Source: Thermodesulfovibrionales bacterium (GTDB lineage: Bacteria; Nitrospirota; Thermodesulfovibrionia; Thermodesulfovibrionales; UBA6898). From it: a stretch of DNA of 37,821 nt. The position numbers were made by a program. Location: contig JBIOIY010000029.1 of assembly GCA_044450345.1 (NCBI GenBank), positions 1-37,821 on the forward strand, in the 5' to 3' direction. This document shows positions 3,001-6,000 of this stretch, one piece after another. The first letter of the stretch is position 1; every line of letters begins with the position of its first letter.

Positions 3001-6000
3001 AACCTAATTCAAAATCTTGCATTCCAAGACCAACAGGAAACAAAAAAAGAAGTCAGGGCAGAAGGATAATTTATCTCAGGCTGAAAAGTAATGTAATCTC
3101 AAAACAGTTAAAGGATATTATCCATTTTGAATATACATTCTGCCAATTGAGGTCATTTCCATTTGAAGAAAGCGTCCTTGGAATGAGCTTGTCGGATTTA
3201 TGTTAGGTACCCTGATTTCCCGATTAGGAACCATAAAAATGTGTTGGACAGTATTCAAACGTTGTTCTACTGGGAAAACAATATTCATCTCAAGAAATTT
3301 TATATCGTCCATAATTATATATATACATATAAGTTCTTAAGCGTCAATCCATCCCAAAAATTCTGTCTGAGATTCAACACTTGTTTTTAGGTCTTTTAAA
3401 TCTATGTGTCCGGGAAGTCCATTGGCAAGGGCCGTAATTGAATTATAAGTATTATTACACTGGTCAACCAAAGTACTGAGCGGCTGAATTGATGGGTTTT
3501 TCATTTGTAACGAAACAAGACTTGCCCTCAAATTGGCAAATTCAGTTTGCATTTGTAACACCCCGGTTTTTATTGTCTCGCCCTGTCTTTTGTTGGTTTC
3601 CATAGTAAGCAACACCTGCAATCTGAAATTTGGATCAGGGATTAAGGCTTTCTTAATTTTTTGGCGAACTTTAAACTGCGATGAAAAGGAAGCACTCTCA
3701 ATCATAACAGGGTAAGTTTCCAAGATCTTTTCATCTTCATCTCCCAAGAAAGCATTAAGGTCAAAAAACTCCTTAAGTTTCATTTCAGTTTCATAATCTT
3801 GGTATAGATCTAATAAAAGTGTCTCTTCTTCGGGTGTTGCATCCTTGACAATATTATCAAGGCCGATAGACTCCCGTGCTTCATTTCTGGATATGCTATG
3901 GCTATGTGTATATAATCTTTCTGTTAATTCGTCCACAATTATATCTATACTCTTTTGGCCTTCTCCTTTTAGGTGTAACGAAAGCAACTTTCTTGCAAGA
4001 AGCCTGATTTGAGAATGAGACCTCTTCACATTCCCCAAGGCCAACGGATGAACTTTTTTTGCTAATATTTTGAATACCTCGGTAACATTCGCTTCTTTTT
4101 TTATTCCTATAGGATTGTCTTGAGCAAGCGAAACAAATGATGTCACATCCTCAACACTGATACCCAACGGCTGCTTCGTATTTTCATCCGTGGGATTAAA
4201 GAGGTTTGCAACTGTTGGATCAATTGGGCTTAGTGAGGCTATCCCGCACATTACAATTTCATCTGCACCCAATGAAACTAAAGTTGCAGCACTGTATGCA
4301 ATTACTGGCACTAAAACAGAAAAAGACTTGCAGTAGTTTCTGATAGCATTTACTAAGGGCCAGGCTGTACTGGTGTCTCCACCTCTGCTATGAAGGAATA
4401 AATCAATTTTCTCACAGTTGCTTTCCTTCGATATGGCCCTCAAATGTCTGATTATCTGATGTACTTGATCGGGTGCAATAGATGCTTGGATGCCCTGTAT
4501 GGGATTAGAGGCATACCTATCCGAAGTAACTAAAGTGATTACTTTACTTCCTCTTTTTTTCTCTATCGCTTGTATCAGTTTCTTCCTGTCGGCAAGACCC
4601 ATATCCGTTCTCTTAACGCTTTTTTTTCTCAGGTTTTATTCTTTATTAATCTCGGCAAGACCCCTTCAGACAAAGGAAGAATACACAAAATTAAAGACTG
4701 CCGTCAATAGGAAACCGTGGCTCAAAAGATTGATGAGTCGGTCAGGCTGGGGGAACTCTATAAATCTTTCCAAGGTTCGGGATTTTTACGGGGCTATGAA
4801 TGCAAACCTGAACTCGGTATTGAGTAATTCCAAACAATTTTGACATAAACACCCTTGAGAATTGGCTGTGGGCGCAAGGAAATTTAAGGAGGCGTCATGA
4901 GCGGCCTTCACAACCTCTTTTTTTTCTCTTTGAAACAATATGTCCTTTATAGTAAAATTGTTCGTCGCTACACATTTTTCAAGGAGGACCTCAATGGAAA
5001 AGAAGCATAGGGTCGGCGGTGTCGCTTTTATATTGTTTTTAGTGTGTATAGTGGGAAGCATTGCCGCCAGTTTCAGCCTTCGGGAGATACTTCCCCATCT
5101 GAACAAATGGCAAAAGGGCGGGTATGCCATTGTCGGAGGGATTTTCATCGCGATGGCCGCTGTGATACTGAATGAAATGCTATCGTTCTTTCAGAACGAT
5201 TAACCCCCGGTTTTCGGGTTTCCCGCGCATTAGGCGTGCCTAAATATTTTTATGGGGAATGCTCCTCGGCCCGATCGCGCAAGGATGAGGATGTCGATGA
5301 GATCACGGGTTGTAATTGTCGATTACTCCGTGATGTATTACAGGGGCGTTGTGAAGAAGGCCCTTCCGGCCGTGAGGAGCGGCAAGTTTGTTCAGGTAAG
5401 GCATGGCGATACTGAGTATATAGTCCTTTCCCCCAAGGAATACTGTCCTTACCATGCCGATATTCTTGAAAGGTTCTGCAGGGAGAGGTCCATCGAGGGG
5501 GCATATCAAGAGGGGAAAAAGCGTTTTGACATCCACGACGCCGAATGGATAATCCAGGGCGGGGGCAAGTTCGAGATCGATGAGACGAAGAGACATATCC
5601 GCTTCTATGACAACTCAATGGCATACGGGAGATTCGAGGAGAAGGGACTGGCGGAGAAGGTCCGTCAGACCGATATGCTGAAGGATTATAAGGTTACGGT
5701 CGAATAACCGGCTGTCATACCGGCTTTTGAAAGACTGATTCCATCTGAATAATGAAGAAAATAGAGTGTCGTAAAGGATGCGGGGCGTGCTGCATAGCCC
5801 CATCCATTTCATCTGCCATCCCGGGGATGCCGGTCGGCAAGCCTGCGGGAGTGAGATGCATTCATCTTTTGCCTGAGAATATCTGCGATATCCACGAAAG
5901 TCCGGAACGGCCGAAAACATGCCGGTCTTTTCAGGCGTCCGAGGAATGCTGCGGGAGGTCCCGGCAAGAGGCGATGGAACGTCTGTCAAGGCTTGAGATT

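Follow-up and report, generated by a model that had tools for sequence, protein, structure and literature searches.

A bacterial branch of the PHPT1 (Janus/Ocnus) family with a conserved catalytic signature, represented by a candidate phosphohistidine phosphatase in Thermodesulfovibrionales

Phosphohistidine is central to bacterial signalling, yet to our knowledge very little has been learned about the enzymes that take it off. Where a 2020 paper lists phosphohistidine phosphatases with proposed in vivo targets, only SixA, PHPT1, PGAM5 and LHPP are named, with SixA as the sole bacterial one; its target is given there as NPr, the HPt domain of ArcB having been proposed earlier (PMC7948535). The window analysed here, a stretch of 37,821 nucleotides from a Thermodesulfovibrionales bacterium that occurs in peat and soil (contig JBIOIY010000029.1), carries a gene for a 136-residue protein that an initial annotation placed in the PHPT1 (Janus/Ocnus) family and described as eukaryote-type. 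Is this protein a true member of the family, does the gene belong to bacteria, and what might its product do?

The gene occupies positions 5297..5707 on the forward strand (136 codons plus stop), as supported by the open reading frame and its translation, by Pfam, by the fold match and by dN/dS. In-frame ATG codons also lie upstream of 5297, at 5291, 5285 and 5252, the last of which opens a longer frame. A GAGGA motif at 5287..5291 on the forward strand, 5 nt before the ATG at 5297, is a likely ribosome-binding site, judging from sequence only. The comparison with the nearest relative (locus L021 of our survey) gives a dN/dS of 0.12 for the 136-residue protein; the gene is under purifying selection. 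Its GC content of ~0.50–0.52 equals that of the flanking bacterial genes and differs from that of an AT-rich island at 2800–5000. Contigs from RNA libraries (two runs of one study) fall only on 5048–5264, with none on 5297–5707, a pattern that is uninformative either way on transcription of the gene. An RNA element at 5048–5264, upstream of the gene, was considered and rejected, its predicted fold being no better than that of shuffled sequences (z 0.72) and no Rfam match lying near threshold.

The protein matches Pfam PF05005 well over the cut-off, as first annotated (34.3 bits against 23, E 2.6e-8; 33.3 bits in the genome scan), the match spanning residues 36–124 of 136 and profile positions 28–102 of 108. 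This is its sole Pfam match; nothing in NCBIfam matches, neither PADLOC nor NCBIfam holds a model for it, and neither the SixA model TIGR00249 nor His_Phos_1 recognizes it, which upholds the statement that it is unrelated to SixA. A phmmer comparison with human PHPT1 (2ai6) again returned E 0.17, with YHADI, GGG[KR] and SMAYG aligned, and the 76 homologs at 41–90% identity were recovered (76 of 80 candidates at E <= 0.001). As had been stated, these homologs are unnamed in the sequence sources searched, and in the literature searched no publication dealt with a bacterial homolog of PHPT1. Pfam does already cover some bacterial members, PF05005 appearing in the precomputed annotation of homologs and an ESM Atlas cluster bearing the name Janus/Ocnus.

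The AlphaFold2 model of the protein, as confident as previously reported (pLDDT 95.5, pTM 0.89), has the mixed beta sheet and two flanking helices of the PHPT1 fold, which sets that family apart from other phosphatases. Foldseek against the PDB likewise repeated the earlier result, ranks 1–5 all being human PHPT1 (E 1.2e-7 to 4.6e-6, TM up to 0.74) and the next match falling to E 0.099. VIA-align of the model against 48,161 chains placed PHPT1 at Z 11.4 (rmsd 3.3 Å over 105 of 113 residues); the best chain after it had Z 3.6. When profiles of the bacterial family alone were searched against the PDB, PHPT1 was the sole match, at E 1.7e-4 and, with a second profile, at E 1e-6, where the next entry stood at E 0.21. 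Identity to human PHPT1 is low, as cautioned at the outset (20–25% in structural alignments, against the ~21% given then), and the bacterial profiles give human PHPT1 24.8–31.5 bits, where each of the 150 top-scoring bacterial representatives obtains at least 74 bits. The resemblance to PHPT1 is far beyond chance. Pfam, profile and predicted-fold matches and residue conservation together bear out the assignment to a true PHPT1 homolog with its catalytic signature intact.

Conservation was assessed in 135 sequences: the query and those 134 among the 150 best representatives whose length lies within 120–200 aa, a limit that excluded 16. The residues originally listed as invariant (Y52, H53, G88–K91 and S107–G111) are so in the query and 33 of the 76 homologs; across all 135 diverse members, H53, S107 and G111 are invariant. 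The Y52-H53-A54 codons (5450..5458, forward strand) align with the YHA of PHPT1, with histidine in 135, alanine in 108 and tyrosine or phenylalanine in 123 of 135. H53, the proposed general base, opens helix 53–63 of the model, and the Y-H-A motif is present there. The G88-G89-G90-K91 codons (5558..5569, forward strand) encode a glycine loop with a basic residue that aligns with GGGR78 of PHPT1; the glycines occur in 133, 133 and 125 of 135 members, and K91, aligned with Arg78, falls in a variable column (H 35, R 25, K 22, M 9, W 9, L 7; n = 135). The proposed phosphate-binding loop S107-M108-A109-Y110-G111 (5615..5629, forward strand) aligns with S94-M95-A96-Y97-G98 of PHPT1, with serine in 135, alanine in 110, tyrosine in 130 and glycine in 135 of 135.

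Three further positions bear on the comparison with the human enzyme. K30 (codon 5384..5386, forward strand), a lysine in 131 of 135, is the proposed equivalent of PHPT1 Lys21 on the basis of strand register. It lies on model strand 26–36, apparently with the same in/out register as Lys21, which reaches the active site of PHPT1 from strand 2; the Pfam and HMMER alignments, including one made via a second homolog, begin after it, and the equivalence is tentative. PHPT1 Glu51, reported important there, aligns with P51, and the position of His102 is occupied by E115, both in variable columns (n = 135). Mutagenesis is reported to make His102 important in PHPT1 (PMC11277029); we do not treat it as defining because it lies outside the phosphate pocket as the relevant passages of PMC4817053 and PMC11277029 describe it. 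The contributors to PHPT1 activity given in PMC4817053 are Lys21, His53, Ala54, Arg78, Ser94 and Ala96, and the conserved bacterial positions correspond, as far as alignment indicates, to this experimentally defined catalytic set.

The family is far more widespread than first thought. The initial annotation had counted 12 Nitrospirota genomes and 0 of 53 in the organism's own taxonomic family. This does not hold: the Pfam model finds the gene in 48 of the 401 genomes sampled from the phylum, with 42 over the cut-off, and in 3 of 14 from that taxonomic family; with a profile built on the protein family itself, the counts rise to 60 of 401 (15%) and 5 of 14, respectively. In a second class, that of a genome labelled Thiohalomonadaceae (G401), 7 of 301 genomes have the gene. 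Clustering of the bacterial branch at 50% identity gives no fewer than 346 clusters with E <= 0.001, 259 of them with E <= 1e-10. When the Pfam model was run on the 135 diverse members, 91 reached E <= 0.001; the 163 genomes counted earlier are probably too few because the Pfam cut-off misses many members.

In a phylogenetic tree, all 10 sequences labelled with one taxonomic family (f25) form a single clade (support 100/98), and all 4 labelled f7 form another (100/99). The clades track taxonomy, which fits vertical descent within the phylum. A genome of the same genus (G370, 98% complete) is without a copy, and the gene is therefore dispensable. No copy was found in the plasmids and phages searched, and among the best 120 of 350 proteins in a family-alignment search at E <= 10, those named by organism are all bacterial. 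The framing of the gene as a rare eukaryote-type one is not supported: with 15% of the sampled phylum genomes and a tree that follows taxonomic families, this is a sizeable, uncharacterised bacterial branch of the PHPT1 family and not a rare eukaryote-like oddity.

Gene context was surveyed by clustering naive ORF calls in 54 loci and by running Pfam on the neighbours. Directly upstream, on the forward strand at 4994..5203 (ORF listed from 4940), lies a gene for a small predicted two-helix membrane protein, without a match in Pfam or NCBIfam, that adjoins the PHPT1-like gene in the closest relatives; its identity to the corresponding upstream ORF is 73% at L021 and 48% at L026, and its cluster also occurs at L049, L067 and L074. 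A CxxCxxCC (PF03692, 31 bits) zinc- or iron-chelating domain protein is encoded 45 nt downstream at 5752..6027 on the forward strand, with no terminator-like site found between the two genes and with the same arrangement at L022. The ATP-dependent helicase HrpB follows on the same strand at 6070..8601 (TIGR01970, 933.9 bits) and is syntenic with the gene in window-type loci, its cluster (c11) being present in the window, L021, L022, L026 and L074. Synteny in related genomes extends to HrpB, DeaD and the small membrane protein.

Across the family, neighbourhoods are heterogeneous and include MltG/YceG, Opp-like permeases, HrpB, GalT/HIT-like proteins with a CN hydrolase, and Ap4A phosphorylase. 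Genes for GGDEF, PilZ or receiver domains occur within two called ORFs at 11 of 71 loci, a raw tally with about three independent adjacent arrangements. The neighbours are as uninformative as the initial annotation held, offering no consistent partner and only lineage-specific synteny. No relative of 346–2000 aa was found, which, in a length-limited search, is weak evidence on domain fusions; none of 9 scanned members of 157–278 aa carries a second Pfam domain. Several apparent features of the loci dissolved on inspection. No fusion underlies a 437-aa frame at L053, where the permease frame ends near 5937 and the PHPT1-like ATG lies at 5992 (L053 positions), and the extended frames seen in G604 and G590 were likewise rejected as fusions after their loci were inspected. 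A 2-kb ORF-poor stretch in Nitrospira-type loci consists of 7 clustered tRNA genes. A HAD hydrolase (PF13344 and PF13242, presumably the Pfam families carried by LHPP) lies one to two genes downstream of three Thiohalomonadaceae homologs, which we record as a curiosity only.

On the reading that we favour, the gene encodes a stand-alone cytoplasmic member of the PHPT1 (Janus/Ocnus) family of ~16 kDa, and we consider it probable that the protein hydrolyses N-linked phosphate, above all phosphohistidine, the activity classed as EC 3.9.1.3. We infer what it does, what each residue contributes and what it acts on by analogy with human PHPT1. On that model, the phosphoryl group would sit in a pocket formed by H53 and A54, where helix 1 begins, and by the S107-x-A109-Y-G111 loop; backbone amides and the Ser107 hydroxyl would hold it there, and K30 and K91 would supply positive charge. 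His53 would serve as the general base, activating a water molecule for direct attack without a phospho-enzyme intermediate. The corresponding His53 is described as the general base of human PHPT1, which acts on CheA and also on phospholysine (PMC11277029).

The organism's own genome (91% complete) contains 46 HisKA matches (44 over the cut-off) and 5 Hpt matches; HPr/NPr and SixA (TIGR00249) were not found in it. Phosphorelay histidine kinases and HPt domains are, we infer, the likeliest protein substrates here. By hand count, a match to the SixA model at E <= 1e-5 is present in 25 of the 60 genomes that carry the gene (22 at E <= 1e-14) versus 225 of the 341 that lack it, and, within family f25, in 11 of 30 versus 13 of 34. 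Displacement of SixA was rejected, as cross-tabulation gave no complementary distribution and both families co-occur freely in the phylum. A more far-reaching proposal, which we put forward tentatively and regard as possible but not probable, is that PHPT1-type proteins form a second, SixA-independent class of bacterial phosphohistidine phosphatase. Such a class would be ancient in Nitrospirota, where it would have been passed on vertically, would occur sporadically in other phyla, and would serve to reset the histidine kinases or HPt domains of phosphorelays. The fold would in that case not be a eukaryotic invention; it would have a large bacterial branch, with animal PHPT1 as a single offshoot.

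The same fold and pocket could also serve a different P–N compound, such as protein phospholysine or phosphoarginine or a small phosphoramidate, with the enzyme acting as a housekeeping ‘cleaner’ and not as a signalling regulator. PHPT1 itself dephosphorylates phospholysine substrates (PMC11277029), and a role outside signalling is consistent with the mostly metabolic or housekeeping character of the varied neighbourhoods, with a distribution unrelated to that of SixA and with the finding of no signalling-domain fusion (no member above 345 aa, the nine scanned being single-domain). However, no neighbour indicates a specific small-molecule pathway, c-di-GMP or receiver-type genes are near the gene in the raw tally of loci given above, and the in vivo support that PMC7948535 presents for the PHPT1 family concerns only phosphohistidine proteins. 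We regard this alternative as unlikely, if not strongly so.

That the protein is a non-catalytic member of the fold, an adaptor that binds phosphate or phosphoproteins, is distinctly improbable. The absence of PHPT1 His102 and Glu51 would suit such an adaptor, as would the description of the role of Janus proteins as phosphohistidine phosphatases as still unclear (PMC4817053), but the strict conservation of H53 and Ser107 and the near-constancy of K30 among the 135 members form an active-site pattern, and mere binding would tolerate more change. That the gene is foreign, whether because eukaryotic DNA contaminates the assembly or because a eukaryote recently donated it, is hardly credible. Animals supplied the first described members of the family and the gene adjoins the AT-rich island, yet its GC content is that of the flanking bacterial genes and not of the island, and it shares synteny with HrpB, DeaD and the small membrane protein in related genomes. 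The number of confident bacterial clusters, the agreement of clades with taxonomic families, the low scores of human PHPT1 on the bacterial profiles and the failure to find a plasmid or phage copy also argue against a foreign origin.

Read as a hydrolase of N-linked phosphate acting above all on phosphohistidine, the protein belongs to a bacterial PHPT1 branch with conserved catalytic residues. At 16 kDa and easy to express, it is a tangible candidate for a second type of such phosphatase in bacteria, and its divergent scaffold would offer another setting in which to study the PHPT1 mechanism. The basis of the assignment is homology, and databases already tag such proteins Janus/Ocnus; the carrier organisms are uncultured or hard to grow, and the genomic context indicates no particular pathway.

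Among known systems, LHPP is a HAD-type enzyme with another fold and an Asp nucleophile. It likewise acts on P–N bonds (PMC11277029). SixA possibly does the same job as the protein described here, removing phosphate from phosphohistidine in bacteria, but its fold and chemistry are unrelated: it forms a phospho-enzyme on its own histidine (PMC7948535), whereas PHPT1 is described as using direct attack by water (PMC11277029). Drosophila Janus A/B and Ocnus, the founding members of PF05005, share the Pfam family of the bacterial protein and are animal, testis- or sex-regulated proteins according to PMC4817053 and abstracts. Human PHPT1 differs from the bacterial model in several respects. The latter has an extra helix at 10–19, a two-strand insertion at ~64–83 (a 15-residue gap against 2ai6) and a tight turn at 37–38 where human PHPT1 has loop L2, residues 29–39 (PMC4817053). 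His102 and Glu51 are not kept in the bacterial protein, and Arg78 is replaced by a lysine, at a position that is variable in the family. Human PHPT1 (PDB 2ai6, 2hw4, 2nmm and 2ozw) nevertheless belongs to the same Pfam family, has the same fold according to the model and is similarly small and without another domain, and the two proteins align at the YH(A) that starts helix 1, at the GGG-basic loop and at the S-x-A-Y-G loop.

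The PHPT1-like gene occupies a 136-codon open frame at 5297–5707 on the plus strand. This frame is already open at an ATG at 5252, and ATGs also occur at 5285 and 5291. In the alignment, homologues of the protein start no more than two residues away from ATG 5297, and a GAGGA motif (5287–5291) lies 5 nt 5′ of ATG 5297; the called start is therefore reasonable, with ATG 5291 equally possible. Antisense ORFs overlap the gene, and the conserved frame is that of the plus strand. Comparison with the nearest relative, a homologous locus in another genome (L021, 76% identity), gave a dN/dS of 0.12 at a dS of ~1.1.

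Pfam returned a single match for the protein, PF05005 (Janus/Ocnus; 34.3 bits, cut-off 23), in agreement with the initial annotation. The query alone aligned weakly to human PHPT1 (E = 0.17), with YHADI, GGG[K/R] and SMAYG paired in the two proteins, so that the PHPT1 signature reported earlier stands. A 34-row profile comprising the query and 33 of 76 close homologues matched PHPT1 at E = 1.7e-4 (runner-up, 0.12), and a 135-member profile did so at E = 1e-6 (runner-up, 0.21). An AlphaFold2 model computed from the 34-row alignment (pLDDT 95.5, pTM 0.89) retrieved human PHPT1 chains as the top five Foldseek hits (E = 1.2e-7 to 4.6e-6, TM up to 0.74; next hit, E = 0.099). Independently of Foldseek, VIA-align against 48,161 representative chains placed PHPT1 at Z 11.4 (r.m.s.d. 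3.3 Å over 105 of 113 residues, 25% identity), with the second-best chain at Z 3.6. Both searches leave a wide gap to the next structure, which bears out the claim of a fold matching human PHPT1 alone. The profile, Foldseek and VIA-align results therefore confirm the likeness to PHPT1 and exclude a chance resemblance.

The initial annotation had also described the gene as rare in bacteria, absent from its own taxonomic family and peculiarly eukaryotic in character; none of these descriptions held up in the counts that follow. Scanning 1.84 billion cluster representatives in full with HMMER and the 34-row profile yielded 346 clusters at E ≤ 0.001, of which 259 reached E ≤ 1e-10 and 22 reached E ≤ 1e-30. 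In the Nitrospirota sample, the Pfam model detected the gene in 48 of 401 genomes (42 above cut-off), 3 of them among the 14 from its own family; none of 14 control genomes matched. The family's own profile raised these counts to 60 of 401 and 5 of 14, with 7 of 9 genomes in family f7 and 30 of 64 in f25; no copy was found by this profile in f29 (0/75), f30 (0/28) or a 98%-complete genome of the same genus as the window (G370). PF05005 at E ≤ 0.001 recovers just 91 of the 135 diverse members, and counts from the Pfam threshold are therefore too low. In a second sampled class, represented by a genome labelled Thiohalomonadaceae (G401), 7 of 301 genomes carry the gene; three of these seven were scanned with Pfam and none reached E ≤ 1e-5. 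Named sources among the matches listed include Nitrospirota, Thermodesulfovibrionales, Candidatus Sulfobium, Zixiibacteriota and Akkermansiaceae. The nearest ESM Atlas cluster (343 members, commonest phylum Nitrospirota) is named 'Janus/Ocnus family domain-containing protein'. No copy was found in the plasmids and phages searched.

A maximum-likelihood tree was built from 70 rows, leaving out 1 of 71 matching loci with fewer than 100 residues matched; its bootstrap is not fully settled, its root is arbitrary and its rows are bacterial. All ten f25-labelled rows fall inside one 30-row clade (support 100/98) and all four f7-labelled rows inside a separate clade (100/99), while L021 and L022 (Candidatus Sulfobium) group with the window (100/90). 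The Thiohalomonadaceae rows form a long branch. The GC content of the gene is that of its bacterial neighbours, unlike that of an AT-rich island upstream. Contamination or recent import does not fit the tree, synteny and GC content; tree and conserved synteny fit a long vertical residence in the phylum.

Gene neighbourhoods were compared by naive ORF calling and clustering on 54 loci and by Pfam on the neighbours in 71 loci. In the window, L021, L022, L026 and L074, a small two-helix membrane protein precedes the PHPT1-like gene, followed by a CxxCxxCC protein or a second small membrane protein, HrpB, an unidentified gene and DeaD. The predicted two-helix protein (4994–5203, plus strand), which the closest relatives also have right beside the PHPT1-like gene, matched no family; it is 73% identical in L021 and 48% in L026, where two copies flank the gene. 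A scan from the PHPT1-like gene to HrpB found no terminator-like site, so co-transcription of the two is plausible. In ~16 f25-type loci, OppB- and OppC-like permeases precede the PHPT1-like gene, which is convergent with MltG/YceG, an ABC1/UbiB-type kinase, phasin and AlaRS; in f7-type loci it is followed on the same strand by MltG and then IspG. Other loci carry toxin–antitoxin pairs, a GalT/HIT-like gene with a CN hydrolase, Ap4A phosphorylase, or GGDEF, EAL, PilZ or receiver proteins. No neighbour was general to the 71 loci. A signalling gene occurs no more than two ORFs away in 11 of the 71 loci, but these come down to ~3 independent adjacent arrangements, a lead only.

Several features of these loci were noted separately. 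A ~440-aa frame in L053 (5083–6396) and L005 (G230:C3) spans part of the OppC-like permease and the PHPT1-like ORF. As the frame of the permease itself ends near 5937, this apparent fusion looks instead like a frameshift or assembly error within the permease gene. The ORF-poor 2 kb from trigger factor to the OppB-like permease holds seven tRNA genes (L051 2053–3289, minus strand; ~10 related loci), and no ATPase or binding-protein gene adjoins the permease pair that follows. In Thiohalomonadaceae loci, a HAD hydrolase with PF13344 and PF13242 (L068 6643–7728, L069 4207–4986, L070 7024–7806) lies one or two genes downstream of the PHPT1-like gene; we take it to be of the NagD type, the subfamily including mammalian LHPP.

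Within the window, the AT-rich island (2800–5000) has a GC content of 0.33–0.42, against 0.50–0.64 around it. It encodes on the minus strand a 421-aa homologue of Clp-fold SDH-type serine proteases (3337–4602; PF01972, 70 bits; NF047768, 91 bits, below the NCBIfam cut-off of 250), with weak matches to head-maturation proteases of phages; PADLOC gave no match. L021 carries a different gene in its place, so the island was probably inserted from a foreign source. Two RNA-library runs of a single study yielded short contigs that map solely to 5048–5264, the 3′ end of the small ORF and the spacer that separates it from the PHPT1-like gene; one of these contigs carries adapter sequence on either side of a 140-nt insert (5125–5264). 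This segment has no Rfam match and folds no better than shuffles. Two adjacent DsrE/DsrF-like ORFs (537–896 and 889–1308, plus strand) suggest a sulfur-relay module, which fits Sulfobium-like relatives.

PMC4817053 names Lys21, His53, Ala54, Arg78, Ser94 and Ala96 as contributing to PHPT1 activity, and Glu51, Tyr52, His53, Tyr93 and Met95 as binding substrate. Conservation was scored in the query and 134 further sequences, left from the 150 best cluster representatives once 16 outside 120–200 aa had been dropped. H53, S107 and G111 are invariant (135/135), and K30 (131), G88 and G89 (133 each), G90 (125) and Y110 (130) nearly so; conservation is lower at A109 (110), A54 (108) and position 52, where 123 members have Y or F. 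From the strand register, K30 would be the counterpart of Lys21, a position outside every alignment obtained. The PHPT1 phosphate pocket is thus the part frozen by selection in the bacterial family. We conclude that the gene encodes a true, conserved bacterial member of the PHPT1/Janus-Ocnus family, its catalytic pocket intact. The protein is uncharacterised and unnamed, and automatic annotation already recognises its Janus/Ocnus membership. One structure-prediction study used PF05005 as a test case only and states a mainly bacterial Pfam taxonomic profile (PMC10989767). No description of a bacterial PHPT1 homologue turned up in the literature searched, in line with the initial annotation; that literature includes few subscription journals, and absence from it is no proof.

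Among bacterial phosphohistidine phosphatases, PMC7948535 lists a proposed in vivo target for SixA alone. A search of the window's own genome, which is 91% complete, did not recover SixA (TIGR00249). The SixA model matched 250 of 401 genomes in the phylum sample (E ≤ 1e-5); cross-counted by hand with the scan for the PHPT1-like family, these are 25 of 60 with the PHPT1-like gene (22 at E ≤ 1e-14) versus 225 of 341 without. This gap arises because f29, f30 and others have SixA-like but no PHPT1-like genes; within f25, SixA-model matches occur in 11 of 30 genomes with the gene versus 13 of 34 without, and the phylum counts therefore give no sign that either enzyme replaced the other. By analogy, the PHPT1-like protein would most likely be a P–N (phosphohistidine) hydrolase operating like PHPT1. 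The main rival, a non-histidine or small-molecule P–N substrate, appears rather unlikely. PHPT1 itself acts on bacterial CheA and also on phospholysine, as PMC11277029 reports. HPr/NPr was not found in the window's own genome, which encodes five Hpt domains, in large proteins, and 46 HisKA matches (44 above cut-off). Should a phosphohistidine protein be the substrate, the obvious pool among those searched would be the two-component and phosphorelay proteins.

In PHPT1, His53 is described as the general base that activates water, without a phospho-enzyme intermediate (PMC11277029). Three PHPT1 features are not retained: the column of Arg78, with K in the query, ranges over H, R, K, M, W and L in the bacterial family, that of Glu51 is variable, and that of His102, E115 in the query, is also variable. 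The query model has an additional predicted helix (10–19) and a two-strand insertion (~64–83) relative to the human protein, and a tight turn where human PHPT1 has loop L2.
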